Assembly (NCBI GenBank): GCA_035527935.1
Contig: DATKZO010000048.1
Location: forward strand, 58,690-122,689
From: Bacteroidales bacterium
GTDB taxonomy: Bacteria > Bacteroidota > Bacteroidia > Bacteroidales > VadinHA17
Reading direction: 5' to 3'
Length of the DNA stretch: 64,000 nt
The notes under the pieces were generated by a model. That model saw only the letters and a program-made list of their open reading frames with translations, searched no databases and was not told the origin of the DNA. Each line of letters starts with the position of its first letter. The stretch's first letter is position 1. Shown here piece after piece: positions 27,834 through 59,935 of this stretch. The translations under genes and the position numbers were made by a program.

Positions 27834-28858
27834 TTGTATATTTTCATCTTGTCGAGTTCTGACCAGTATTTATTGGCATAATTAAGATGCTCGTTCAGGT
27901 TAGTTGAGAAATGATGGTAGCCAGAAAAGTCGTACCTGGCAACAAAATAAAGATAATCATGCTTCACTGCCCCCAGTACGGATTCAATACCTGAAATAGT
28001 AGCACATCTGACAGGACCTGGTGGCAATCCTGTATATTTGTAGGTATTATAGGGCGAATCGATTGTAAGGTGTTCGATCAGTACACGTCGTATTGTAAAG
28101 TCATTCAATGCAAACTTTATAGTTGGGCAGGCTTGCATTGGCATATTGCGTCTCAGCCTGTTCAGGTACACACCGGCAATCATGGGCTTTTCGTCCTCCA
28201 TCATGACTTCATCATCAACTATTGAAGCAAGAATACTTACCTCAACAGGATTTAATCCAATTGCAGATGCCCTGTCAATTCGTTCACCGGACCAGAACCT
28301 ATTAAATTCCTTCAGCATTCTATCGTATAGCTCCTGTGGTGAAAAGGTCCAGTAAACCTCATATGTGTCGGGTATAAAAACAGCCATTACTGTTTCCATT
28401 ATAAATCCATCCCTTGAATAATTATCCTCATCCCTGAGAAACTCAATTAACTCCAGAGAGTCCGCTTCAAGCTGACTGCCTAACCTCCCGGCCAGCTCAT
28501 CAAGTGTCCTTATATTGTTGAAGGAAATATCCACAGGTGTTTGATTCCCTGCCCTTAAGAGGTTCATTATATCATTATTGCTAACCCTGTCGGGGATGTA
28601 ATAGTGGCCAGGTTTTATATTTGACCTGTAATTCTTTTTTTTTGCCAGTAGATCAAATACGACCTCATTTGCCAGTAATCCCTCTTCCCTTAGAATGTCT
28701 TTCACATCCTCATATTCAGCCTCACGATATATATAGATATCCTTCCCCGCATCTTCAATCCTGATTGGCCTGAGGGATGATCTCCAAACCAGAGTTATCA
28801 GTACTGCTACTGTTATTATTATTCCTGCGCCGATCCATCTTAAAAGCTTTCTGTCCAT
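27830..28858 (-). CDS. mltG: Endolytic murein transglycosylase MltG (YceG-like)
   Basis: 342 aa with an N-terminal TM anchor. It has SILASIVDDE, SPYNTYKYTGLPPGP and YLYFVA...HHFSTNLNEH motifs. Confidence 0.9.
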   Translation of the reverse strand: MDRKLLRWIGAGIIITVAVLITLVWRSSLRPIRIEDAGKDIYIYREAEYEDVKDILREEGLLANEVVFDLLAKKKNYRSNIKPGHYYIPDRVSNNDIMNLLRAGNQTPVDISFNNIRTLDELAGRLGSQLEADSLELIEFLRDEDNYSRDGFIMETVMAVFIPDTYEVYWTFSPQELYDRMLKEFNRFWSGERIDRASAIGLNPVEVSILASIVDDEVMMEDEKPMIAGVYLNRLRRNMPMQACPTIKFALNDFTIRRVLIEHLTIDSPYNTYKYTGLPPGPVRCATISGIESVLGAVKHDYLYFVARYDFSGYHHFSTNLNEHLNYANKYWSELDKMKIYN

Positions 28859-29001
28859 ATACTATATGATAAATTTAAGGTCTAAAAATAATATAATTAA
28901 ATATAAAAGCTTATAATCTGCTCAGAACTCAAAATTCATTTTGGGATTGAGTTAAAAAAAAATCAGAAACACTTGATCTTGACATACGTTATATATATAT
29001 T

Positions 29002-29037
29002 TATACTTTATTAGTATACTTACACTTTATTTGTATA
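29002..29037. promoter_or_regulatory. Two tandem operator-like palindromes upstream of the TetR gene (TATACTTTATTAGTATA and TACACTTTATTTGTATA)
   Basis: The sites are at 29002-29018 and 29021-29037, 19 bp apart centre to centre and 38-73 bp upstream of the TetR ATG. Each has 4-6 bp inverted arms around a TTTATT core. Confidence 0.45.
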
Positions 29038-29074
29038 TTTATATATTTATATTGTATTCATATCTCTTATAAAT

Positions 29075-29659
29075 ATGAGTAAACTGAATAAGAAATACTT
29101 ACAGATAATTGAAACTGGCAGGGATCTATTCTGGAAATACGGGATAAAGCGTGTTACAATTGAAGAGGTGTGCAGTAAGGCAAATGTAAGTAAGATGACA
29201 TTCTATAAACACTTCAGCAATAAGAATCATCTTGTAAAGCAAATCCTCGACTATATCTATGATGAGGGGATCAGGCATTACAGGTCAATAATGGATAGTG
29301 ACAAATTGTATAGGGAAAAAGTTGCAGACCTGGTCAAATTGAAAATAGATGCCACGAATGATATCAGTCACGAATTCCTGAACGATTATTACAGTATAAT
29401 GGACAATAAATTAAAAGGTTACCTTCAAAACTTAATGGAAAAGTATACCAAGATTTTTCTTACGGATTTTATCAAGGCACAGAAAACTGGTGATATCAGG
29501 GCAGATTTAAAACCTGAATTCATAATATATTTCATTAATCACATGGTCATACTGGTAAATGATCCGGCACTAAATGCCCTATACCCTGATGCACAGGAGA
29601 TGATACTGGAGCTAATGAATTTATTGTTTTACGGTATTATGCCGAGGACTGAGTCATAA
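29075..29659 (+). CDS. TetR/AcrR family transcriptional regulator
   Basis: 194 aa, with an N-terminal HTH (GIKRVTIEEVCSKANVSKMTFYKHFSNK). Confidence 0.9.
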   Translation: MSKLNKKYLQIIETGRDLFWKYGIKRVTIEEVCSKANVSKMTFYKHFSNKNHLVKQILDYIYDEGIRHYRSIMDSDKLYREKVADLVKLKIDATNDISHEFLNDYYSIMDNKLKGYLQNLMEKYTKIFLTDFIKAQKTGDIRADLKPEFIIYFINHMVILVNDPALNALYPDAQEMILELMNLLFYGIMPRTES

Positions 29660-29663
29660 AGCC

Positions 29664-30803
29664 ATGAATAATCTTTTAAAGATATTATTGTTTGCATTAA
29701 TAATCAGTACACTTGTCTCTACCGATCTAAATGCCCAGTTCCTGGATTTCAAAGGTATGGCAGCAGGATGGTTAACTTCAGGTTATAGTGACCAGATGGC
29801 GATGCAGGTAGGAGGCAGGTATATTCCCCAAATTGAAGGAATTATTCCACTAAAGAATAATTTAACCATTGAGGGTGAGTTCTCAGCAAATTTTGTTGGA
29901 AGCTATACCAGCCCTATTGAGGGAGATAAATTTTACGGAAAAATAAAACCGTATCGCATGTGGATGAAAATATCCGGTAATCAATTTGAAATACGGGCCG
30001 GGCTTCAAAAAATGAACTTTGGATCAGCTACAATATTGCGTCCGCTTATGTGGTTCGACAGGATAGATCCCCGGGACCCGTTACAACTGACTGACGGAGT
30101 CTACGGAGTATTGGGAAGGTATTATTTGCTTAACAATATTAATTTCTGGGCATGGGGGCTTTATGGGAATAAAGACACGAAAGGCTGGGAGGTATATGTA
30201 ACTGATAAGCACAGTGTCGAATTTGGTGGTCGCTTCCAGTTTCCTGTACCCAGGGCTGAGATCGGACTGACTTATCATTTCCGGAAAGCTACTCTGCCTT
30301 CAAATGTTTCGGGATTTGCTGATAACATAATCTTCCCTGAAAACAGGCTTGGAGTTGATATTAAAGCTGATCTTGGAATTGGAATCTGGATGGAAGATGT
30401 TGTTAAATACCAGGATCATGGATGGAACTATCCATATACGAATATGCTAACTATCGGAGCAGATTACACATTCGGGCTTGGTAATGGATTAAATATAATG
30501 TCCGAGCATTTTATCTATCAATTATCAGAGGATTTGTACGGAGATGATATGACTGTAAATTTTACAGGCTTATCTGCGAGTTATCCGCTATCCCTTACAG
30601 CTAACATCTCAGCAATACTTTACTATGACTGGGATAGCGAAGAGCTTTATCGATTCTTAAACCTTGGACTGACCTATGACAGGTTCAGTTATTACTTAAT
30701 GGGATTCTGGAATCCCGAGAGGTTCAGGATATTTGATTTTAATACAGGGCCGTCATTATTTAATGGAACGGGATTTCAGATAATGGTGGTTTATAATCAT
30801 TAA
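29664..30803 (+). CDS. Putative outer-membrane beta-barrel protein (signal peptide, amphipathic beta pattern), function unknown
   Basis: 379 aa. It has a signal ending LNAQ and is rich in alternating aromatic/Gly strands (GLTYHF, IGADYTFGLG, GLTYDRFSYYLMGFW). I recognised no family motif. Confidence 0.55.
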   Translation: MNNLLKILLFALIISTLVSTDLNAQFLDFKGMAAGWLTSGYSDQMAMQVGGRYIPQIEGIIPLKNNLTIEGEFSANFVGSYTSPIEGDKFYGKIKPYRMWMKISGNQFEIRAGLQKMNFGSATILRPLMWFDRIDPRDPLQLTDGVYGVLGRYYLLNNINFWAWGLYGNKDTKGWEVYVTDKHSVEFGGRFQFPVPRAEIGLTYHFRKATLPSNVSGFADNIIFPENRLGVDIKADLGIGIWMEDVVKYQDHGWNYPYTNMLTIGADYTFGLGNGLNIMSEHFIYQLSEDLYGDDMTVNFTGLSASYPLSLTANISAILYYDWDSEELYRFLNLGLTYDRFSYYLMGFWNPERFRIFDFNTGPSLFNGTGFQIMVVYNH

Positions 30804-30881
30804 AGACAAAATGTAAAAGGCGAAAGGCCACCGGTCATTAAGAGAATAAACAGTGACTTATTTTAGTAATCAGTGAATCAA

Positions 30882-30923
30882 CCCTGCCTGCCATGCCTGC
30901 GGCAGGTAAACCGGCAGGCAGGG
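30882..30923. repeat. GC-rich 11-bp inverted repeat (CCCTGCCTGCC ... GGCAGGCAGGG) inside the operon spacer
   Basis: The arms at 30882-30892 and 30913-30923 are exact complements with a 20-nt loop. It lies between the barrel gene and the ABC ATPase gene. Confidence 0.75.
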
Positions 30924-30953
30924 AAAAAGCGAATAAACAAATAAACAGAAAAA

Positions 30954-31652
30954 ATGAGCAATTCAGAAATTATTAACATTCGGGGACTTGTTAAACGATT
31001 CCCGATTGGTGGAGGTTATTTTACAGCCTTAGAAGATATTAATCTTAAGATTGATACCGGGGAGTTTACCGGTCTTGTGGGACCAAGTGGTTCCGGAAAA
31101 ACCACTATGCTGAATATTATCGGTTCACTTGACAATCCCACTGAAGGTGATGCCAGTGTGATGGATACTTCCATGCGTGGTATAAGTGCTAAAAGGGCTT
31201 CTACATTAAGAAGACAGCACTTTGGTTTCATATTTCAAACCTATAACCTGATGCCTGTTTATTCGGTATATGAAAATGTGGAGTTTCCACTCCTCCTGTT
31301 GAAAATGTCAGCTTCAGAGCGAAAAAAGGCTGTACTGGATGCGCTTGAATGGGTTAGTCTTACCGATAAAATCCGGTCAAAACCAAAACAGCTGTCCGGA
31401 GGAGAATCACAACGGGTAGCAATAGCCAGGGCAATGGTGAAACGTCCCCAAATGGTACTTGCCGACGAACCTACCGCAAACCTGGATGCTGAAAATTCTC
31501 ATCATATTCTCAAGACCATGGAGACGCTGAACAAAGAGTTGAATACCACATTCCTGTTTGCAACGCACGACGATAAAGTTATTAAATATCTGAGAAGGAT
31601 AATCCGTTTGGAGGATGGCAAAGTGGTTGCAGACGATCTGGTTAAAAACTGA
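30954..31652 (+). CDS. ABC transporter ATP-binding protein, LolD/MacB type
   Basis: 232 aa, with Walker A GPSGSGKTT, signature LSGGESQRVAIARA and Walker B MVLADEPT. Confidence 0.9.
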   Translation: MSNSEIINIRGLVKRFPIGGGYFTALEDINLKIDTGEFTGLVGPSGSGKTTMLNIIGSLDNPTEGDASVMDTSMRGISAKRASTLRRQHFGFIFQTYNLMPVYSVYENVEFPLLLLKMSASERKKAVLDALEWVSLTDKIRSKPKQLSGGESQRVAIARAMVKRPQMVLADEPTANLDAENSHHILKTMETLNKELNTTFLFATHDDKVIKYLRRIIRLEDGKVVADDLVKN

Positions 31653-31665
31653 AAGGAGGCATATT

Positions 31666-32838
31666 ATGTTAGCAATTAAACTGGCAATAAGAAACCTGGT
31701 TGGTGCAGGGTTTAGAACCTTCCTGAATGTCTTCATCCTTTCCGTTGCCTATGTGGTAATCATCATGCAAAATGGATTTATCCAGGGATGGAACAAACAG
31801 GCAAGGCACGACACCATTGAATGGGAGTATGGCCAGGGACAATACCGAAATGAAATCTACGATCCCTACGACCCATTCACCTATGAAGATGCACATGGGA
31901 TAATTCCTGATAAGTTGCTGCCTTCCTTTGAAAAGGGTAATATTGCCGCTGTCCTGATTTCGCAGGCTACAATATATCCTGAGGGTAGGTTAAAAAGCAT
32001 TATGCTTAAGGGGATTAATCCAGGACAAGAGGTTGTAGCCCTGCCAACATATAAACTTGTAGCTGAAAACGATGAAATCCCAGCAATAATTGGGTCCAGG
32101 ATGGCTGTCGATATTAAGGCAAACGTCGGCGATTTTGTACTTGTTCGCTGGAGAGATGCAAACGGGATGTTTGATGCTGTTGAAGTAATAATTACAGGAG
32201 TTTTTAGTACAAATGTTCCGGCAATTGACATGGGGCAGATATGGATTCCCTTGAAAAGCATGCAATCAATGATAGGCATTGAAAATGAAGCAACAATTAT
32301 TATAATTAAAAATGAAACCGATCGTGAATTGGATCTTGAAGGGTTCGATTTTTGGGATCACTCAGACCTACTGGCCGATATGGATGAGTTGATTAGGGGT
32401 AAATCAATAGGAAATGCTGTAATGTACTTGATATTGCTTGCACTTGCTCTGCTTGCAGTATTCGACACCCAGGTACTGTCAATATTCCGTCGTCAGAAGG
32501 AGATTGGAACTTTTATTGCCATGGGTATGACCCGCAGACAGGTAATTGGTGTATTCACAGTTGAGGGTACGATGCATGCAATTTTTGCTCTGATTATTGG
32601 CGCTCTATGGGGTGTTCCTACGCTTTTGAAATTGAAGCAAACAGGATTCCCTATGCCGGAAGGGATTGACCAGATGGGTCTCCCCATAAGTGAAACCATT
32701 ATTCCGGCCTACAGCATGGCCCTTGTAATAGGTACTGTAATCCTGGTAACATTAACAACAGCTATCGTGAGCTATATGCCAGCCAGGAAGATCGCGAAGA
32801 TGAATCCCAATGATGCCATCAGGGGAAAAATTCAATAA
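31666..32838 (+). CDS. ABC transporter permease, FtsX/MacB/LolC-E type (first of two)
   Basis: It starts MLAIKLAIRNLVGAGFRTFLN (ATG at 31666). It has a large extracytoplasmic domain after TM1 and a C-terminal FtsX 3-TM bundle ending PARKIAKMNPNDAIRG. Confidence 0.85.
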   Translation: MLAIKLAIRNLVGAGFRTFLNVFILSVAYVVIIMQNGFIQGWNKQARHDTIEWEYGQGQYRNEIYDPYDPFTYEDAHGIIPDKLLPSFEKGNIAAVLISQATIYPEGRLKSIMLKGINPGQEVVALPTYKLVAENDEIPAIIGSRMAVDIKANVGDFVLVRWRDANGMFDAVEVIITGVFSTNVPAIDMGQIWIPLKSMQSMIGIENEATIIIIKNETDRELDLEGFDFWDHSDLLADMDELIRGKSIGNAVMYLILLALALLAVFDTQVLSIFRRQKEIGTFIAMGMTRRQVIGVFTVEGTMHAIFALIIGALWGVPTLLKLKQTGFPMPEGIDQMGLPISETIIPAYSMALVIGTVILVTLTTAIVSYMPARKIAKMNPNDAIRGKIQ

Positions 32839-32859
32839 CCACTGCCATAATTTATAGAT

Positions 32860-34134
32860 ATGTTACGTTTTTTTATAAAAGGATTGCTCAGAGATCGTCA
32901 AAGAAGTCTGTTGCCAATTATTGTAGTTACACTGGGTGTAATGCTGGCAGTACTCATGCAGGCCTGGATCACGGGTATACTGGGTGATATCATAGATTTC
33001 AACTCCAGATTCGCAACAGGACATGTAAAGATCATGAGCCGGGCGTATAATGACATAAAAGACCAAAAACCCAACGACCTGGCTTTGTTGGAGGCTTCAG
33101 GTTTAATATCCGAATTGAAATCCAAATACCCGGATATGATATGGGCTGAGCGTATTAGTTTCGGTGGACTGATAGACTCTCCGGATGAGAATGGTGAGAC
33201 CAGGGAACAGGGACCTGCAATGGGTATGGCTGTTGACCTGCTGTCGGAGAACAGCCGTGAAGTTCAAAGGTTGAATCTGCAGAACATACTCGTGAGAGGA
33301 GAGCTACCCGACTCATCTAATGAAGTACTAATAAGTGAATTATTCTCACAGAGGTTGAAAGTAAATCCCGGAGATCAGGTTACACTGATCACTTCTACCA
33401 TGTATGGAGCAATGTCGATTACCAACTTCACAGTCACAGGGACTATTAAGTTCGGAGCTCCGGTGCTTGACCGTGGTGGAATTCTGGCTGATATATCAGG
33501 CATTAGAGAGGCTATGGATATGGAAGATGCTGTCGGTGAAATTCTTGGTTATTTCGGTGAAGGTGAATATGACGACGAGAAAGCAACAGCATTATCCAGT
33601 GCGTTTAACTCTGCCGATTCAGATCCTGAAGATCTGTTTTCACCTTTAATGGTTGAACTCAGTGAACAAGACGAACTTATTTCCGGATATCTTAATTTGG
33701 TGGGTCACATGCAGAGAATTGTCATTACAATATTCCTTGTAGCTATGGCAATCGTCCTATGGAATGCAGGATTACTGGGAGGATTAAGAAGATATGGTGA
33801 AATGGGTCTGAGAATGGCCATCGGAGAGCATAAAGGTCATATTTACAGGAGTCTGATCAGTGAATCACTGGTAATTGGAATAGTGGGATCGGTAGCAGGA
33901 ACAGCGATTGGTCTGTTTTTTGCAAGATTACTTGAGAATGGGCTTGATTTCAGCTCTATGCTTGAAGGATCTACCATGATGATGTCAGGGATATATAAAG
34001 CCCGGATTACACCTGAAACCTATTATATTGGATTCATACCCGGAATACTTGCCACGTTCCTCGGAACCGCACTGGCCGGTATTGGTATTTATAGACGCCA
34101 GACAGCCCAGTTATTCAAGGAGCTGCAGGCATAG
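32860..34134 (+). CDS. ABC transporter permease, FtsX/MacB/LolC-E type (second of two)
   Basis: 424 aa with the same architecture: TM1, a roughly 230-aa periplasmic domain and three C-terminal TM helices. Confidence 0.85.
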   Translation: MLRFFIKGLLRDRQRSLLPIIVVTLGVMLAVLMQAWITGILGDIIDFNSRFATGHVKIMSRAYNDIKDQKPNDLALLEASGLISELKSKYPDMIWAERISFGGLIDSPDENGETREQGPAMGMAVDLLSENSREVQRLNLQNILVRGELPDSSNEVLISELFSQRLKVNPGDQVTLITSTMYGAMSITNFTVTGTIKFGAPVLDRGGILADISGIREAMDMEDAVGEILGYFGEGEYDDEKATALSSAFNSADSDPEDLFSPLMVELSEQDELISGYLNLVGHMQRIVITIFLVAMAIVLWNAGLLGGLRRYGEMGLRMAIGEHKGHIYRSLISESLVIGIVGSVAGTAIGLFFARLLENGLDFSSMLEGSTMMMSGIYKARITPETYYIGFIPGILATFLGTALAGIGIYRRQTAQLFKELQA

Positions 34135-34158
34135 TGTAAACTTTTAAAGATCAGAATA

Positions 34159-34890
34159 ATGAAGAATATAATTATCGTGCTCTTGTTTAGCACAACAGTC
34201 TGCCTGGGGCAAATTCCCTCAGGAGAAACAATCCTGGATCGAATAGATCAGAATATGTCATCCGACACAAGGCATGTCATATCAAAAATGGTGATCCATG
34301 GTGCACGCACTACAAGAACCATTGAGGCGGAAACATGGTCAGCCGGTGATGATGAATCATATACAGAATACCTGGCGCCGGCCAGGGAAAAAGGTACAAA
34401 AATGCTTAAGCTGGAAGATAAACTCTGGATCTTCTCTCCCGGAACAGACCGAACCATACAAATCTCGGGACATATGCTTCGTCAATCAGTGATGGGTTCG
34501 GATCTGTCCTACGAAGATATGATGGATGATCCTAACCTGAGAAATAAATATGACGCCGCTGTAACAGGGAGTGAAGAATTGGATGGTGCAGACTGTTGGG
34601 TGCTGGAATTACAGGCCAATTCCCCGGATGTAGCCTACCAGATGAGAAAACTCTGGGTCGATAAATCGAGATACCTGCCTCTGAAAGAGGAACTGTATGC
34701 AAAAAGCGGTACACTGCTGAAGAAAACAGAATTGTTTGATATAAAAAGGATTGGCAACCGCTGGTACCCCGGGAAGATCATCTTCAAGGATATGCTGAAA
34801 AATGGTGATGGTACTGAATTCATAGTCGACAACATTGTTTTCGACGAGCCAATTCCGGAGCATCTCCTGAGTAAGGCTGCCTTGAGATAA
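34159..34890 (+). CDS. Outer membrane lipoprotein-sorting protein (LolA-like fold family)
   Basis: 243 aa with a signal peptide. It matches the LolA_like pattern as I remember it (ILDRIDQN, KLWIFSPGTDRTIQISG, MGSDLSYEDM, DCWVLEL, KLWVDKSRYLPLKEELYAKSGTLLK). Confidence 0.8.
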   Translation: MKNIIIVLLFSTTVCLGQIPSGETILDRIDQNMSSDTRHVISKMVIHGARTTRTIEAETWSAGDDESYTEYLAPAREKGTKMLKLEDKLWIFSPGTDRTIQISGHMLRQSVMGSDLSYEDMMDDPNLRNKYDAAVTGSEELDGADCWVLELQANSPDVAYQMRKLWVDKSRYLPLKEELYAKSGTLLKKTELFDIKRIGNRWYPGKIIFKDMLKNGDGTEFIVDNIVFDEPIPEHLLSKAALR

Positions 34891-35167
34891 AAAATACCCG
34901 GTATCAGATTCCCTAAGCACATTGTTAATCTGTGTTTAAATCTGAAATCAGTAACATGGGGAAAGCAGGCATTAAACGGAAAAAACAGCCTGCTTACCGA
35001 TTAAACTTGACTAATATTATTTAGATTCATATAGTTGTATATTATTTTTCTTGAAATATCAGGTTTGGAGCAGTATCAGATAACCGAAATAGTATATTTA
35101 CTGAATCAAATAATTGAAACAAATTAATTCATAGATCCTAAATCAATTCTAGCCAAATAAATGCACA

Positions 35168-36031
35168 ATGAAAACCATTCTTAAAAACCCGGGATGCTGG
35201 CTGGCGCTGCTGGCATCTGTATTAGTTATGACAGGCTGTTCAGCAACTAAAACAGCAAAAACTGTTGACCCCGGACTTAAGTATAAACTTTCCGGAAGCA
35301 GCAATTTCTCCTATACCCTGAACGCTGAGGTAACTCAGTCGATTGATGTTGGTGGCCAGGATGTAGGAGCAACAATATTGAGTTCTACAGGTTTCACACT
35401 GACTCCCGGACAGGCAGCAGCCGGTGTGATACCGCTAAAGGTCACAATTGATACTGTTGGTATCACTATTCAATCACCTCAGGGGAACCTGGTTGAAACC
35501 AAGAGCGAGCTCAAGGGAAGACAATTTAATATGACGATTTCAGAATTTGGAAAGGAAGATAACCTTGATGAAGCTGAAGAAATTAAATATATGGTGGCAG
35601 GCCAGCAGGAATCCAACCTGAAGGGCACATTCGTTATGCTGTTTCCTGATCTTCCTGAAATAACGTATAAAGAGGGAACCTCATGGACAGATAATGATAC
35701 AATAGACATTAGTACAAGCTCAGATAATGCTATGATGATTATGCAGTCAGAAAACATATTCGCTGGTACGGAAGAATTTGAAGGCTACCACTGTGTACGT
35801 ATTAACTCCAGGATAAAAGGTGAGAGAACAAGTGTTTCAAATACGCCTCAGGGCCAGATAACAACTGACGGCGCCCTTGAGGGTGAATCATCTTTTCTAT
35901 TTGTCCCTGATCAGGGAATACTTGTATGGGCTGAGTCAAATGTTACGATGAAAGGATATGTTTCTGTCCCTACCGGAGATTCATACCCATTGCAGGTAAT
36001 TACCAAATATGTAACAAAATTGGTGAAGTAG
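35168..36031 (+). CDS. Hypothetical lipoprotein
   Basis: 287 aa with lipobox LVMTGCSA and a beta-rich Thr/Ser/Gly composition. I recognised no family. Confidence 0.6.
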   Translation: MKTILKNPGCWLALLASVLVMTGCSATKTAKTVDPGLKYKLSGSSNFSYTLNAEVTQSIDVGGQDVGATILSSTGFTLTPGQAAAGVIPLKVTIDTVGITIQSPQGNLVETKSELKGRQFNMTISEFGKEDNLDEAEEIKYMVAGQQESNLKGTFVMLFPDLPEITYKEGTSWTDNDTIDISTSSDNAMMIMQSENIFAGTEEFEGYHCVRINSRIKGERTSVSNTPQGQITTDGALEGESSFLFVPDQGILVWAESNVTMKGYVSVPTGDSYPLQVITKYVTKLVK

Positions 36032-36144
36032 GCAATTAGGCTCTTCATCAGCTATACAACGGCCATAAAAGAAGAAAACCCATGCCGTAAAACCTAAAAC
36101 CTATGTAGAAACGAAACTTAAAATATTCTGGCATCTTTTTCATG

Positions 36145-36206
36145 ACTGCCCGGCATGGGTTTGTATGAGGATTCTTACATATGACCATTCAGCAGTAAAT
36201 AACCCT
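36145..36206. repeat. 62-bp dispersed direct repeat, copy A
   Basis: ACTGCCCGGCATGGGTTTGTATGAGGATTCTTACATATGACCATTCAGCAGTAAATAACCCT. It matches copy B at 54 of 62 positions by my alignment. Its CGGCATGGGTTT segment is also the reverse complement of 36076-36087. Confidence 0.85.
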
Positions 36207-36363
36207 ATTTGAAATAACGATTTTTTTTTTGATTTAAATTCTCCAACGCATAAATTAGAGAGTGGAGATAAAAGTTGATTGGAATCACAGCTCCTGCCCC
36301 CCTGACTACCTGCGCAGACGTAGTTTTATAAGCGCCCCCTGATCCTGTTATGATCGTTATATC

Positions 36364-36795
36364 TCATATCTTGCGATTCAATGATTCCATGCGCTTCTCC
36401 AACTCCTTAAATCTTTCATGCATCTGCTTTTCAAGATGCTCCATCCTCTCCCCGAATTCTTCAAGGAATTGCTCATCAATTCTGAAATCAGGTATACTGA
36501 AATCATAATCATACCCAAACTCAAAATCGCGATAAAATCCATGCAATCTGAATGTGGGAATATCAAAATAGAAATAGTTTTTATCTGCCCAGCGTTCAGG
36601 TTTTTCATATTCCTGTCCTGATTCCAGTGCCTCAAGAATGTTCAGCATTGAGTTCCTGCTATCAGGACCCTGGGCCTTTGTATCCTCCCTCCCGGTAATA
36701 TCCTGTGGGGGGTAGCCGAATGAGGTGAAACCGACAACCGATACCATCAGTATGGCAGTTGTAATTAATCTGGTAATATTTCTGCTTGTGTTCAT
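36364..36795 (-). CDS. Hypothetical small secreted/anchored protein with C-terminal coiled-coil-like tail
   Basis: I prefer the start MNTSRNITRLITTAILMVSVVGFTS (ATG at 36795) over the track start at 36882, which lies inside repeat copy B. It has an aromatic/acidic core and a KELEKRMESLNRKI tail. Confidence 0.55.
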   Translation of the reverse strand: MNTSRNITRLITTAILMVSVVGFTSFGYPPQDITGREDTKAQGPDSRNSMLNILEALESGQEYEKPERWADKNYFYFDIPTFRLHGFYRDFEFGYDYDFSIPDFRIDEQFLEEFGERMEHLEKQMHERFKELEKRMESLNRKI

Positions 36796-36844
36796 AGCTA
36801 GAGTTATTAGTCTGTTTTGATCGAATCTTCTCGCGGCAAGCTGC

Positions 36845-36906
36845 ACTGCCCGGCTTGGGTTTGTACGAGGATTCATATACATGACCCTTCAGCAGCTAAT
36901 AACCCT
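36845..36906. repeat. 62-bp dispersed direct repeat, copy B
   Basis: ACTGCCCGGCTTGGGTTTGTACGAGGATTCATATACATGACCCTTCAGCAGCTAATAACCCT. It has the same orientation as copy A and starts exactly 700 bp downstream of it. Confidence 0.85.
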
Positions 36907-37151: not shown

Positions 37152-38045
37152 TTACACTCGTGTGAGCTGGGGCCAGCCTTTTCTGATTTTTTCAACTTTC
37201 AGCCGTAATGGTTCTCCTGAAGCAAAGGTGTGAGTGGTCTTGATCCTGTGATTGTAACCGTATAGATCGGTAACAATTGCAATATGTTTAGTTCTGCCGG
37301 CAATTGTAATTACTTCCTTAACAGTAAAATCATATACTTCACCAATCTTAAAGAATGGATTCTCGGGCTCAATCCTTATGTTGGTATTTTTTCTGTATCT
37401 GATGAATCTGCCTCTGAATTCCGATCCCTTTTTCAAACCATAGTGTTTATAGTATTCATATGGGAGGCTATGTTTGATTCCCGATGGGCTGGTCACGAGG
37501 AAATATGATCTGCCATCAATACCCTTAACCACATCATCTATTTGAAAAAGGGTATAACTCTCCTCTTCGGATTCGATGGTTCTTTTCTCATCTCTGGTTC
37601 CTGCCACAATAATCTGACCCTTTGTAATTCTTTCTATTAACAAGCTGATAGTATCGCCTGGTGATATCTCTCGGTCTCCAATATATTCATCAGGAATAAC
37701 TACCTCTGCACCTGCCACTCCGGAGGCTACGATCACGCCATGTGGCCTTCCTGACCTATCGATCCTGATATCCCTCTCAGTAATGGTGAATTCATATTTT
37801 TCCCCTTCCCTGTAATATGGATGTTCCGGCTCAAGATATACCTCACCGTTACAATTTATTTTATCTACCCTGCAATGAATTGTCCCGTCAAGAATAATGT
37901 TGTATCCGTAATACCTGGCTGACGGGATCAGATATCGTCTGTTGTCAGGTCCTTTAAGAACAAAATAGGTTTCCTCTTCAAATCTGACTGTCTTGGTTAC
38001 CTGGAAAATATACTTCTTACCCTCTTCAAGTCTCATTTTCATCAA
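37152..38045 (-). CDS. Hypothetical protein made of two homologous halves (beta-rich, OB/SH3-like by composition)
   Basis: 297 aa. The internal duplication is visible by eye: YFVLKGPDNRRYLIPSARYYGYNI...VYLEPEHPYYREGEKYEFTI versus YFLVTSPSGIKHSLPYEYYKHYGL...IRIEPENPFFKIGEVYDFTV. Its start overlaps the cls stop by 4 nt. Confidence 0.6.
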   Translation of the reverse strand: MMKMRLEEGKKYIFQVTKTVRFEEETYFVLKGPDNRRYLIPSARYYGYNIILDGTIHCRVDKINCNGEVYLEPEHPYYREGEKYEFTITERDIRIDRSGRPHGVIVASGVAGAEVVIPDEYIGDREISPGDTISLLIERITKGQIIVAGTRDEKRTIESEEESYTLFQIDDVVKGIDGRSYFLVTSPSGIKHSLPYEYYKHYGLKKGSEFRGRFIRYRKNTNIRIEPENPFFKIGEVYDFTVKEVITIAGRTKHIAIVTDLYGYNHRIKTTHTFASGEPLRLKVEKIRKGWPQLTRV

Positions 38046-57493: not shown

Positions 57494-59935
57494 TTGGACC
57501 TATTGGCCAGACCATCCAAAATATTACTTCCACTAATACTGCTTTCCCTGAGTTCGGCTCTTTTTTCCCAGCAGTTAAATACAATTATTTATGGAGAGGT
57601 TACCGATTCAACCAGCTTCCCGTTATCACTTGTAAATGTGACTATAAGAAATGAGTCCGGTGGAACATTTACAAATGAACAGGGGAAATTTGAACTGAGA
57701 ATCACAGCAGATAATCTGGAACATTACCTAATTATATCAATTATTGGTTATGTTACCAGACAGGTTCCTTTTAATGCAATCAATGATACTGTTAACTTTA
57801 GGATAGTCCTGGCTGAAGATGTTGCTCAGCTTGATGAGGTTTTTATCAGGGATGCAGGACGATTGGAGTCTCCCACAATGAGACAGGTCCCAATCAGGGA
57901 TATAAAACTGTTACCTTCCGCCTCAGGTAGTTTTGAAAATATACTTGTTACATTACCGGGTGTAACGAGACAGGATGAATTGTCGAGTCAATATTCAGTG
58001 CGGGGAGGCAATTATGATGAGAATCTGGTTTATGTAAACGATATTGAGATTTACCGGCCCCAGCTGATAAGATCAGGAAAGCAGGAAGGGCTCAGTTTTA
58101 TAAATCCGGATCTGACCGGATCTGTAAAATTTTCAGCCGGAGGCTTCAATGTTTCATATGGAGATAAAATGTCATCCGCTCTCGATATTACCTATATGGA
58201 TCCTCACCAGTTTTCAGGATCAGTCTCGGCTGGTCTCCTCACAAGCACAGCTCACATTGAAGGCACAGGTTTCAAAAACAGACTTTCCTATATTTCCGGT
58301 ATAAGGTATAAAACTAACAGACTGCTTCTCAGGTCACTTGATACAAAAGCCAATTATATTCCTGATTATTATGATATGCAAAGTCTTTTCCGCTTCAGGG
58401 CAGGAACAAATATTTCTGTTTCACTTCTAGCTACCTACAGCATCAACAGATATGGCTTTGTACCTAAGTCGCAACGAAGCAGCTTTGGAAATTTACTGGA
58501 AGCATATCAGATATTTGTCAGGTATGATGGTTCAGAAACAGACAGATACAGATCTTATAACATTGCATTAACCCTGGAGTATAGTCCTTCGACAGAATTT
58601 AGTAATAAGATTATTCTGCATAAGTACGAGACTCTGGAAAGTGAAAATTTTGATATCGTGGGCACTTACTCGCTAAATGCCCTTGATAAGGACCTTGGGT
58701 CAGAAAACCTGGGGGACAGCATTATAAACATTGGGACAGGAAGCTGGCTTGATCATGCCCGTAATTTATTAAAGGCTAACATTGTTGTTGCTTCCTACAG
58801 GGGAAGATGGCAGAATACAAATAATATATTGAGATGGGGAGGCAAGGTCTCAACAGAAGTGATAGATGACAGACTTAAGGAATGGAAACGGATCGATTCC
58901 GCAGGTTATACAATACCCTACTCCATTGAGCGTCTCATGATGACACGTTCTGTAGCCTCCTTCAATAGTCTGTCAGCATTCAGGGCCGATGCATATCTTT
59001 TGGAAGCTTATTCCTTATTATTTAATGAGAGCAGGTTACTGGTAACCGGAGGTATGAGGATTTCCTACTGGTCATTCAATGATGAAATCCTGTTCAGCCC
59101 CAGAGCGTCACTCAGGTGGTTCACTCCAATGCCGGGGATGGAATTATATATTGCTGCCGGCAAATATTATCAGTCGCCTTTCTACAGGGAAATGAGAGAT
59201 CAGGAGGGCTTACTAAATGAAAGCATCAAGTCTCAAAGATCATTTCATTATCTTGTAGGTTCAAGTTTTAATTTCAGTGCAGGGACGACTCCCTTTCTTC
59301 TTACCTGCGAAATGTACTTTAAGAAACTTGATGATCTTATCCCCTATAAATATGACAATGTCAGGATCATCTATTCAGCAACAAATAATGCCAGAGGTAC
59401 TGTCAAAGGAATTGACCTGAGATTGCATGGTGAGTTTGTCAAGAACGCAGAGTCCTGGATATCTATGTCATTAATGGAAGCCAGGCATGATATAATTGAT
59501 GATGACAAGCCCTCCTTCCCTGCTCCATCTGATGTCAGATTCAGTACTGATGTTTTCTTTCAGGATTATTTTCCCACAAACCCAAGTTTTCGTGCCCATA
59601 TTTATCTTCACTACAGCACTGGTATACCGGTAAGTTCACCCTATGAAGAGAGGTACGACAACTTTTACAGGATGCCTCCATACCGGCGTGTTGATATTGG
59701 TTTTACAAAAGTTCTTAAGGACAGGTACTCTATTCCCGGGAGCAAAGTATTATCAGGATTTGAAACAATAGTAGCAGGAATCGAGGTGTTCAACCTTCTT
59801 GATATAAATAATACGGTATCATATCACTGGCTTTCAACCGTAAATAACCTGGACGGAGAGGTCAGACAATTTGCAGTTCCAAATTACCTTACCGGGAGAA
59901 GTATAAATGTGAAGCTTTCATGCACATTCAGGTAG
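57494..59935 (+). CDS. TonB-dependent receptor family protein with N-terminal CarboxypepD_reg domain
   Basis: 813 aa with a TTG start. It has a signal peptide, then IYGEVTDSTSFPLSLVNVTI...TNEQGKFEL, a plug-like region (LPGVTRQDE...SVRGGNYDENLVYVNDIEIY) and a long beta-barrel. Confidence 0.8.
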   Translation: MDLLARPSKILLPLILLSLSSALFSQQLNTIIYGEVTDSTSFPLSLVNVTIRNESGGTFTNEQGKFELRITADNLEHYLIISIIGYVTRQVPFNAINDTVNFRIVLAEDVAQLDEVFIRDAGRLESPTMRQVPIRDIKLLPSASGSFENILVTLPGVTRQDELSSQYSVRGGNYDENLVYVNDIEIYRPQLIRSGKQEGLSFINPDLTGSVKFSAGGFNVSYGDKMSSALDITYMDPHQFSGSVSAGLLTSTAHIEGTGFKNRLSYISGIRYKTNRLLLRSLDTKANYIPDYYDMQSLFRFRAGTNISVSLLATYSINRYGFVPKSQRSSFGNLLEAYQIFVRYDGSETDRYRSYNIALTLEYSPSTEFSNKIILHKYETLESENFDIVGTYSLNALDKDLGSENLGDSIINIGTGSWLDHARNLLKANIVVASYRGRWQNTNNILRWGGKVSTEVIDDRLKEWKRIDSAGYTIPYSIERLMMTRSVASFNSLSAFRADAYLLEAYSLLFNESRLLVTGGMRISYWSFNDEILFSPRASLRWFTPMPGMELYIAAGKYYQSPFYREMRDQEGLLNESIKSQRSFHYLVGSSFNFSAGTTPFLLTCEMYFKKLDDLIPYKYDNVRIIYSATNNARGTVKGIDLRLHGEFVKNAESWISMSLMEARHDIIDDDKPSFPAPSDVRFSTDVFFQDYFPTNPSFRAHIYLHYSTGIPVSSPYEERYDNFYRMPPYRRVDIGFTKVLKDRYSIPGSKVLSGFETIVAGIEVFNLLDINNTVSYHWLSTVNNLDGEVRQFAVPNYLTGRSINVKLSCTFR

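Follow-up and report, generated by a model that had tools for sequence, protein, structure and literature searches.

A conserved gene cassette encoding an ABC transporter of type VII, a LolA-like protein and a predicted outer-membrane barrel of an undescribed family in a Bacteroidales genome

The analyzed DNA, called the window below, is a stretch of 64,000 nucleotides (nt) from a Bacteroidales bacterium (Bacteroidota; Bacteroidia; Bacteroidales; VadinHA17), positions 58,690–122,689 of contig DATKZO010000048.1 in the GenBank assembly GCA_035527935.1. It contains a cassette of six genes on the + strand. The first of them encodes a TetR-family regulator (29075–29659, 194 aa; PF00440, TetR_N, E=7e-13) and is preceded by a candidate TetR operator made up of two 17-bp palindromes of the form TATAC-N7-GTATA (29002–29037). 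The genes that follow encode a predicted outer-membrane beta-barrel of 379 aa belonging to an unnamed family (29664–30803; AlphaFold2 (AF2) model), an ATP-binding cassette (ABC) ATPase of the type VII (MacB/LolD/FtsE) class (30954–31652, 232 aa; PF00005, E=7e-34), two FtsX-type permeases, namely permease 1 (31666–32838, 390 aa; PF02687, E=7e-14) and permease 2 (32860–34134, 424 aa; PF02687, E=9e-16, and PF12704, MacB_PCD, E=1e-6), and a soluble periplasmic protein of the LolA superfamily (34159–34890, 243 aa; PF17131, E=5e-58). A GC-rich stem-loop, recognized by its folding energy, lies on the + strand in the gap between the barrel and ATPase genes (30882–30923), and a lipoprotein gene (35168–36031, + strand, 287 aa, lipobox LVMTGC) is located 277 nt past the cassette.

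The first-pass annotation of this DNA had described the same seven open reading frames (ORFs) and the tight packing of the first six. Both were confirmed, the intergenic gaps being 4, 150, 13, 21 and 24 nt, and the domain calls were reproduced by Pfam (TetR_N, ABC_tran, FtsX in both permeases, and LolA_like PF17131). In the ORF list, permease 1 starts at an earlier ATG, at position 31615. Its homologues begin at the equivalent of position 31666, among them the 390-aa homologue of locus L001, which starts just past the ATPase gene, and position 31666 was therefore taken as the start.

The barrel profile, run against 185,579 species genomes, yielded at least 576 relatives and 80 loci. According to tblastn with the window proteins, 67 of the 81 non-redundant loci keep the order barrel, ATPase, permease 1, permease 2, LolA-like protein, with all five genes on the same strand. 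The contig end interrupts 13 of the other 14, so that the five core genes are colinear in 67/68 sufficiently long loci and the synteny on which the first-pass interpretation depended is indeed kept in relatives. The loci span at least six phyla: Bacteroidota (most of the loci), Aminicenantes (10), Acidobacteriota, Gemmatimonadota, Calditrichota (Calditrichaceae) and KSB1. Clustering of 1313 ORFs across 83 loci revealed no further conserved neighbour, and the absence of a membrane-fusion protein and of TolC, also claimed earlier, was confirmed in the seven genes, in the nearer window genes scanned and among the conserved neighbours. No MMPL/ACR_tran gene is present in the cassette or conserved beside it in the related loci, and no paralogue of the cassette proteins was found within the 64-kb window. 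The six genes make up a self-contained and strongly conserved unit with predicted products in three compartments, namely a type VII ABC transporter in the inner membrane, the soluble LolA-superfamily protein in the periplasm and the barrel in the outer membrane.

Two further observations concern the related loci. A protein of ~780 aa with Sortilin-Vps10/BNR and PSII_BNR (Ycf48-like) domains is encoded downstream on the same strand in 13 Bacteroidota loci, 20 nt to ~5 kb past the LolA-like gene (for example, L010:15091-17433 (+); the others are L016, L017, L018, L028, L032, L033, L040, L044, L045, L047, L052 and L053). The loci L024, L035 and L056, labelled 'uncultured Eubacteriales', share the cassette sequence type with the Aminicenantes loci L059 and L070, and all five have a common upstream neighbour, a conserved ORF of 557–577 aa. 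These labels are probably wrong, since Firmicutes are hard to reconcile with an outer-membrane barrel.

The product of the second gene had been put forward as a beta-barrel candidate, and the AF2 model bears this out, showing an 18-strand outer-membrane barrel with a predicted local distance difference test score (pLDDT) of 86.4 and a predicted template modelling score (pTM) of 0.79. The protein has a signal peptide ending in ..LNA/Q (the slash marks the predicted cleavage site). In the model, strand 1 begins right after this peptide, and the barrel is therefore predicted to have no periplasmic domain or extension. Strands 5 and 6 are joined by a loop of ~30 residues (residues 116–145) in the position of the porin constriction loop L3, and this loop with its flanks forms the densest run of family-invariant residues.

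In a collection clustered at 90%, 5289 relatives of the barrel were found, all of them named hypothetical and none with a Pfam domain. A family profile built from 43 members was compared with 1.84 billion representatives and matched 968 clusters (50% identity) at E<=1e-3 and 524 clusters at E<=1e-30. Neither Pfam (to E<=10) nor NCBIfam nor, with the 43-member profile, the PDB gave a sequence match for the barrel, and the OEP (TolC-type) Pfam model did not match it; a single member of the 43 showed a weak similarity to Porin_4 (E=0.015). According to the Foldseek search of the PDB, the best matches are all general porins, with a TM-score of ~0.5, a root-mean-square deviation of 7–9 A and 13% identity. 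Assignment to the general porins of the 16-strand OmpF/OmpC type was rejected in view of the 18 strands, the TM-score and the failure of the porin Pfam models. As judged from its model, the 379-aa protein is an outer-membrane barrel of an undescribed family.

Some features of the barrel sequences are recorded separately. Long representatives (622–644 aa) were considered as carrier–barrel fusions and rejected: in two of them an unrelated domain (PlsY, SPOR) stands upstream of the barrel, which suggests errors of gene calling, and the third has no Pfam match. The C-terminus of the family is a conserved ..FNH, not the usual aromatic end of outer-membrane barrels; the DUF1302-type barrels end in ..YSF. 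A glutamine directly follows the predicted cleavage site in both exported cassette proteins (..LNA/QF and ..CLG/QI), as it does in most Bacteroidota homologues of the carrier.

The ATPase contains recognizable Walker A (GPSGSGKT), signature (LSGGESQR) and Walker B (LADEPT) motifs. Its best NCBIfam match is LolD (TIGR02211), with 229 bits against a cut-off of 307.75, and its nearest PDB relatives are MJ0796, YtrE and LolD, followed by MacB and FtsE. The identity of the ATPase among the loci is 55–82%, and by its sequence it is classed as a typical type VII nucleotide-binding domain (NBD). According to hydropathy analysis, permease 1 consists of a first transmembrane helix, a periplasmic domain of ~210 aa and three C-terminal transmembrane helices; permease 2 has the same layout with a MacB-type periplasmic core domain of ~250 aa. 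The two permeases are only 22% identical (E=4e-4). They score 48.6 and 25.0 bits, respectively, against the lolCE model (TIGR02212), the cut-off of which is 362.45, and thus are not lolCE equivalogs. Their nearest PDB relatives are remote, LolC for permease 1 (E=1e-5) and MacB for permease 2 (E=1e-3). Both permease types were found in 68 loci, in 50 of which the stop codon of permease 1 overlaps the start codon of permease 2 by 4 nt. The two genes are translationally coupled in these loci, which fits a heterodimer of fixed stoichiometry.

In type VII ABC transporters, ATP moves the periplasmic domains, and no substrate passes across the inner membrane; LolCDE extracts lipoproteins, and MacB expels periplasmic substrates. 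This bears on an uptake (retrograde) route, in which the barrel would admit a hydrophobic nutrient, the LolA-like protein would chaperone it, the ABC transporter would supply the energy to release or insert it at the inner membrane, and TetR would serve as a substrate-induced catabolic switch. The porin-like fold of the barrel with its conserved L3-like loop would suit such a route. It is considered improbable, since type VII transporters (FtsX/MacB/LolCE) have no transmembrane path for a substrate, we know of no importer of this class, and the HAE3/MMPL pumps of the related cassettes described below are exporters. In addition, no catabolic genes are conserved beside the cassette in the 83 loci, and no importer-type substrate-binding protein occurs among the cassette domains.

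The LolA-like protein, referred to here as the carrier, matches PF17131 with 196.3 bits (gathering cut-off 30) over profile positions 1–183 of 184. In Pfam it does not match LolA proper (PF03548), and the only other similarity is a weak one to MucB_RseB. It has a type I signal peptide ending in ..CLG/Q. A lipobox-like N-terminus was seen in 2/68 members of the family, the proteins of which are predicted to be soluble and periplasmic, with no lipid anchor family-wide. According to the phmmer search, the PDB relatives (E from 2e-17 to 3e-13) are 3BUU (2e-17), 4Z48, 9TP6 (1e-13) and 3BK5, which places the carrier in the LolA_like (TP_0789-like) family of the 'LolA3' type. The 9TP6 entry is LolA3 (PGN0947) of Porphyromonas gingivalis, which, like 3BUU, has a LolA fold with a hydrophobic groove (PMC13103446), and the carrier is 26% identical with Porphyromonas LolA3 along the full length (E=1e-19). 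In the studied Bacteroidota, P. gingivalis and Flavobacterium johnsoniae, PF17131 proteins exist alongside canonical LolA (PMC13103446, PMC11885536).

Two other leads to the carrier family were followed and abandoned. In Treponema pallidum, TP0789, the source of the newer name of PF17131, adjoins TP0790, an AcrB/MMPL-like pump, and TP0786 is LptB and no part of a comparable cassette. Papers on Thalassolituus and on limonene mention LolA-like proteins in passing.

The combination of one ATPase, two different FtsX permeases and a LolA-fold protein corresponds to the LolCDE/LolA logic, and the first-pass annotation had allowed that this locus might be the housekeeping lolCDE/lolA of the genome. 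By the sub-cut-off scores of the ATPase and of both permeases and by the PF17131 family of the carrier, the cassette is not the canonical LolCDE/LolA system. Indirectly, the TetR control, the patchy distribution and the coexistence of LolA with LolA3 in P. gingivalis and F. johnsoniae (PMC13103446, PMC11885536) also make a housekeeping role improbable. A second, specialized Lol-type pathway, in which the ABC transporter would extract particular lipoproteins (surface-exposed ones, for instance) or bulk outer-membrane lipids, the LolA-like protein would carry them, and the barrel would flip or insert them in the way proposed for Slam or Omp85-like barrels, is very doubtful. TetR control and a patchy distribution are ill-suited to a biogenesis pathway, and the permease scores are far under the lolCE cut-off. 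A similar pathway has been proposed for BBJ23-29 of Borrelia (PMC13078400), and the route of surface lipoproteins in Bacteroidota is unsettled (PMC11885536). P. gingivalis LolA3, however, binds LolB-PG very weakly, and a separate function was therefore assigned to it by the authors (PMC13103446). In F. johnsoniae, deletion of lolA3 affects neither gliding nor the type IX secretion system, and a mutant without all five LolA/LolB homologues, LolA3 included, exposes a surface lipoprotein reporter normally (PMC11885536).

The lipoprotein gene next to the cassette would favour such a pathway, and it had been listed with the module. Its membership was not borne out. The 287-aa protein has no relative in Pfam, NCBIfam or the PDB, and a homologue follows the cassette in only one of the 81 related loci, L005 (15315-16136, 36% identity), which is the closest genome locus; it is absent from the other 80. 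As the lipoprotein is not conserved with the cassette, it was dropped from the module.

The palindromes reported upstream of tetR were confirmed as TATACTTTATTAGTATA at 29002–29018, with perfect arms, and TACACTTTATTTGTATA at 29021–29037, with one mismatch; they are 19 nt apart, and the pair is located 38–73 nt 5' of the start codon of tetR. With the motif scored at >=9/10 arm bases, 21/53 related loci have TATAC-N7-GTATA in the 150 nt that precede tetR, compared with ~1 in shuffled upstream regions. Its density is 2.95 per kb upstream of tetR and 0.055 per kb in whole loci, a 54-fold enrichment, and palindrome doublets with the same spacing of 19 nt were found in the loci L042 and L060. With this good comparative support, the motif is probably the operator of an autoregulated TetR protein. 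The tetR gene stands immediately upstream of the barrel gene in 57/81 loci (median gap 5 nt). Comparison of the window TetR with the named TetR equivalogs of NCBIfam gave weak sub-threshold matches.

For the 150-nt gap that separates the barrel gene from the ATPase gene, the minimum free energy is -40.3 kcal/mol (z=-4.75). The hairpin at 30882–30923 within this gap has a perfect 11-bp GC-rich stem (CCCTGCCTGCC...GGCAGGCAGGG) that encloses an inner hairpin and is not followed by a T-run. It occurs once in the window and is absent from all 85 loci, and the Rfam scan of 28700–36400 gave no match, so that a repeat or a conserved RNA element was rejected. A processing or stability element or a partial terminator specific to this genome is possible; the hairpin may set the ratio of tetR–barrel to ABC transcripts or mark a processing site. 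A scan for sigma-70 promoters was discarded (25 matches compared with 23.6 in shuffles; the model is unsuited to Bacteroidota).

The genes around the cassette in the window have ordinary functions in the envelope and in metabolism and include those for MurB, YceG/MltG, cardiolipin synthase and glycosyltransferases. The MurB neighbour shows FAD_binding_4/MurB_C domains in the syntenic locus L001, and synteny of the surroundings is limited to the closest relatives. Between the lipoprotein and cardiolipin synthase genes there are two ORFs on the - strand without a Pfam match (36364–36882, 172 aa, and 37152–38045, 297 aa); the 297-aa protein seemingly consists of two similar halves.

The first-pass annotation had compared the module with Lol and MacAB only. 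This comparison had missed the cassettes of a LolA-like protein (DUF1329/PF17131), a DUF1302 barrel and an HAE3/MMPL pump, and these, represented by AmeABCD and PG1178-81, are the closest known kind. Since the DUF1302/DUF1329/HAE3 cassettes precede it, the ABC cassette is treated here as a variant and not as a wholly new system. Full-text literature searches found no description of the ABC-driven cassette, in agreement with the earlier statement that clusters of this shape are annotated generically and have no assigned substrate.

AmeABCD of Castellaniella defragrans consists of a DUF1302 protein, a DUF1329 protein, a BNR protein and an HAE3 pump of the resistance-nodulation-division (RND) type (PMC6394551). 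Deletion of ameABCD lowers monoterpene tolerance and raises the net influx of Nile Red (PMC6394551). Cassettes with the DUF1302/DUF1329/BNR/HAE3 set are known from Proteobacteria, and in Shewanella, Kangiella and Pseudomonas these genes were grouped by cofitness (10.1101/072470; 10.1101/2020.07.04.188060). A BNR/Ycf48-like protein (AmeC, COG4447) is a constant component of the DUF1302/DUF1329/RND cassettes. DUF1302 was reported as an 18-strand barrel, and a DUF1302–DUF1329 complex was modelled in AlphaFold-Multimer with an interface predicted template modelling score (ipTM) of 0.84 (PMC13499233).

To find cassettes with LolA3 in Bacteroidota, the 9TP6 query sequence was rebuilt from the printed alignment, and the loci of its homologues in P. 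macacae and B. zoogleoformans were then inspected. The locus of P. macacae contains, in order, genes for TetR, an MMPL pump, two small proteins, LolA3, a DUF1302 protein (411 aa) and two ABC half-transporters; that of B. zoogleoformans contains genes for an MMPL pump, LolA3 and a DUF1302 protein (420 aa), and no tetR gene was called in it. LolA3 of both species matches PF17131 and DUF1329. In P. macacae (L084:4552-13556), the proteins encoded between MMPL and LolA3 are a 136-aa protein of no family and an S-adenosylmethionine-dependent methyltransferase, which might modify the cargo, and the half-transporters after the DUF1302 gene have the ABC_membrane+ABC_tran composition. Both loci correspond to the PG1178–PG1181 unit of P. 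gingivalis. The genes of this unit, termed an 'uncharacterized transport system' (PMC13096392), are among the most strongly induced under iron/heme limitation, 13- to 136-fold (PMC10434189), and head the induced list in another study (PMC10470040); they are downregulated in CdhR (PG1237) mutants, most under nitric oxide stress (PMC11018363).

The barrel of the window and the DUF1302-type barrels have the same invariant columns, G-x-Q-x3-[FW]-G-x-A-x3-R and E-x-G-G-R, with identical internal spacing. In the form G-x-Q-x3-[FWY]-G-x-A-x3-R, the first motif occurs in 82/83 proteins of the window barrel family and in 0/1230 other proteins of the loci; together with E-x-G-G-R it is present in 32/39 DUF1302-type proteins. 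The AF2 model of a Porphyromonas DUF1302-type protein (pLDDT 88.3, ~20 strands) opens with the same layout as that of the window barrel: five strands, with the first motif closing strand 5, a loop of ~30 residues, two strands, a long loop, and strand 8, which opens with E-x-G-G-R. The C-terminal halves differ, the whole barrels having 18 and ~20 strands. BLASTP comparison of the window barrel with DUF1302 (PF06980) was not significant, and none of the 43 family members matched this Pfam model at E<=10. The coincidence of invariant motifs and opening topology points to a distant homology of the two families, which is regarded as probable but unproven.

With modest confidence, the cassette is interpreted as a TetR-controlled, self-contained envelope module for the export (efflux) of a hydrophobic, non-protein cargo. 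Two copies of the ATPase would power a heterodimer of the two FtsX permeases, forming a type VII 'mechanotransmission' engine like LolCDE. Such an engine would not pump across the inner membrane; it would extract a hydrophobic molecule and hand it to the soluble LolA-fold protein (PF17131, LolA3 type). The loaded carrier would diffuse to the dedicated 18-strand barrel and dock there, and the invariant L3-like loop would form a specific passage, the cargo then being released from the cell or passing into the outer membrane. TetR would bind both TATAC-N7-GTATA sites and be released on binding the cargo or a related ligand. A hydrophobic hand-over of this kind is plausible, since LolCDE–LolA and YbbAP–TesA pass hydrophobes to periplasmic partners (PMC12646458). 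Among possible cargoes, membrane-partitioning compounds are preferred because of the AmeABCD precedent, the TetR logic and the lack of biosynthetic neighbours.

A rigid bridge across the periplasm looks unlikely by a rough estimate of domain sizes. A diffusing carrier is preferred because the barrel has no periplasmic extension in its model, there is no membrane-fusion protein, and the soluble parts seem too short by this estimate. The same consideration applies to a fixed complex, in which the LolA-like protein would stay bound either to the barrel, as a plug-and-barrel pair like LptE and LptD, or to the ABC transporter, like EnvC to FtsEX, and the ABC transporter would regulate the channel mechanically instead of extracting a cargo. 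FtsEX-type systems do mechanotransmit to periplasmic partners without moving a substrate. Nevertheless, the permease domains and a 25-kDa LolA-fold protein together seem, on that estimate, too short to reach the barrel, and in every solved relative the LolA fold provides a groove that binds lipid. The carrier gene also stands at the opposite end of the operon from the barrel gene, adjoining the permease genes. The predicted DUF1302–DUF1329 complex (PMC13499233) would agree with a fixed arrangement, as would the proposal of the AmeABCD authors that AmeB and AmeC are adaptors (PMC6394551). Taken together, a fixed complex appears unlikely.

Several observations weigh against export by the cassette as a unit. 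An Acidobacteriota metagenome-assembled genome has the barrel gene alone (L002:2877-4019, L003:2414-3556; 48% identical), between peptidylarginine deiminase (PAD) and MlrC-like genes and with no ABC, carrier or TetR gene nearby; this is the only intact exception to the cassette in the 81 loci. Approximately 30% of loci lack a TetR gene, and no biosynthetic or cargo gene is conserved beside the cassette among the 1313 ORFs of the 83 loci. In hhalign, comparison of the barrel with DUF1302 gave probabilities of 5.5–6.6%; against 39 Porphyromonas-type DUF1302 proteins the probability was 5.5% and the score 29.3, which was reached by 14/60 block-shuffled controls. The score thus lies within the background for barrels, and the claim for the two barrel families is limited to motifs and topology in common. 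Finally, growth on hydrophobic substrates is poor in DUF1302/DUF1329 mutants of Pseudomonas putida and C. defragrans: those of the former have a fitness defect with Tween 20 and butyl stearate (10.1101/2020.07.04.188060), and an ameB transposon mutant of the latter grows poorly on monoterpenes (PMC6394551). Such poor growth fits uptake as well as tolerance, and the uptake route described above would also agree with the co-induction of the PG1178-81 relatives with heme and iron uptake systems (PMC10434189, PMC10470040, PMC13096392).

A broader reading can be considered tentatively, although it may well not hold: the LolCDE–LolA hand-over may have been reused outside lipoprotein sorting as a widespread export route for small molecules or lipids, with the carrier and barrel as an ancient portable unit that can be driven by an RND/MMPL or an ABC engine. 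Its scope would be Bacteroidota, Aminicenantes, Acidobacteriota and related anaerobes, with new 18-strand barrels and with neither a fusion protein nor TolC. The usual explanation of efflux in Gram-negative bacteria is an unbroken tripartite assembly of pump, fusion protein and TolC; delivery by a carrier to a private barrel would add a second design principle. For such a route driven by an RND pump, the evidence is fragmentary and consists of AmeABCD, the DUF1302/DUF1329 fitness data and the strongly heme-regulated PG1178-81. Published ideas come closest in AmeABCD, which is RND-driven and has experimental but sparse support, and in the proposal for BBJ23-29 of Borrelia, which is purely computational (PMC13078400). 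New here are the ABC-driven form, found in at least 576 species genomes, and a barrel family of ~970 clusters that is unnamed in any library. The cassette is broad and clean, and it is not conceptually unprecedented; we infer its function. A five-gene system of this kind is suited to asking how a type VII ABC transporter loads, and a barrel unloads, a LolA-fold protein, and it offers a candidate function for the Bacteroidota 'LolA3' proteins of solved structure.

Among the known systems, LolCDE–LolA has in common with the cassette a single ATPase gene, two different FtsX permeases with four transmembrane helices and large periplasmic domains, and a soluble periplasmic acceptor with the LolA fold. 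The ABC components of the window are, however, all below the equivalog cut-offs (TIGR02211, TIGR02212), the carrier belongs to PF17131 and not to PF03548, and the outer-membrane partner is a predicted integral barrel instead of the LolB lipoprotein. The cassette is also apparently TetR-controlled and is patchily distributed. With MacAB-TolC the cassette shares an FtsX/MacB-type permease that carries the core domain of MacB in the periplasm, an NBD of type VII and a logic of regulation resembling that of efflux systems. The differences indicate that the cassette is not, by its sequence, MacAB-TolC: a membrane-fusion protein and a TolC-like outer-membrane factor are absent, the NBD is not fused to a permease, and the permeases are predicted to form a heterodimer, not a homodimer.

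BBJ23-BBJ29 of Borrelia likewise combines a MacB-like ABC transporter, a LolA-like protein and a dedicated barrel, for which it was proposed from models alone that a non-polar ligand is exported; it differs in having a homodimeric permease, an Omp85-type barrel and tetratricopeptide repeat (TPR) proteins (PMC13078400). In YbbAP–TesA of Escherichia coli, a type VII ABC transporter presents membrane hydrophobes to a periplasmic partner, but that partner is a hydrolase, and the system does without a barrel (PMC12646458).

The PG1178-81 unit, with its relatives in Porphyromonas, Prevotella and Bacteroides, occurs in the same phylum as the window and likewise has TetR first, followed by the pump of the inner membrane, the PF17131 carrier and the barrel; the carriers are homologous to that of the window along the full length (26% identity). 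In contrast to the ABC engine of the window, it has an MMPL pump and two extra ABC half-transporters downstream. A regulator common to the window and the Porphyromonas MMPL cassette was considered and rejected: the similarity of the TetR proteins is confined to the helix-turn-helix region, and the window operator is not shared. A further feature of PG1178-81 is its strong induction by heme/iron limitation.

In AmeABCD, as in the window, a barrel and a periplasmic LolA-superfamily protein are found beside an inner-membrane extruder of hydrophobes, with neither a membrane-fusion protein nor TolC; AmeABCD is inducible and tied to hydrophobic compounds, and the window cassette is proposed to be so. 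The window barrel (379 aa, 18 strands, no Pfam DUF1302 match) is distinct from both the Porphyromonas type with ~20 strands and AmeA of ~600 aa, and the carrier (243 aa, PF17131 only) is distinct from AmeB (451 aa, DUF1329). A BNR protein is not encoded in the window, and the Sortilin/BNR protein is found nearby in 13 related loci. The pump of AmeABCD is of the RND type, whereas the window encodes an ABC transporter of type VII that has one NBD and two FtsX permeases. By analogy, the system described here may be regarded as the ABC-driven counterpart of the cassettes in which a LolA-like protein is encoded together with a DUF1302 barrel and an HAE3/MMPL pump.

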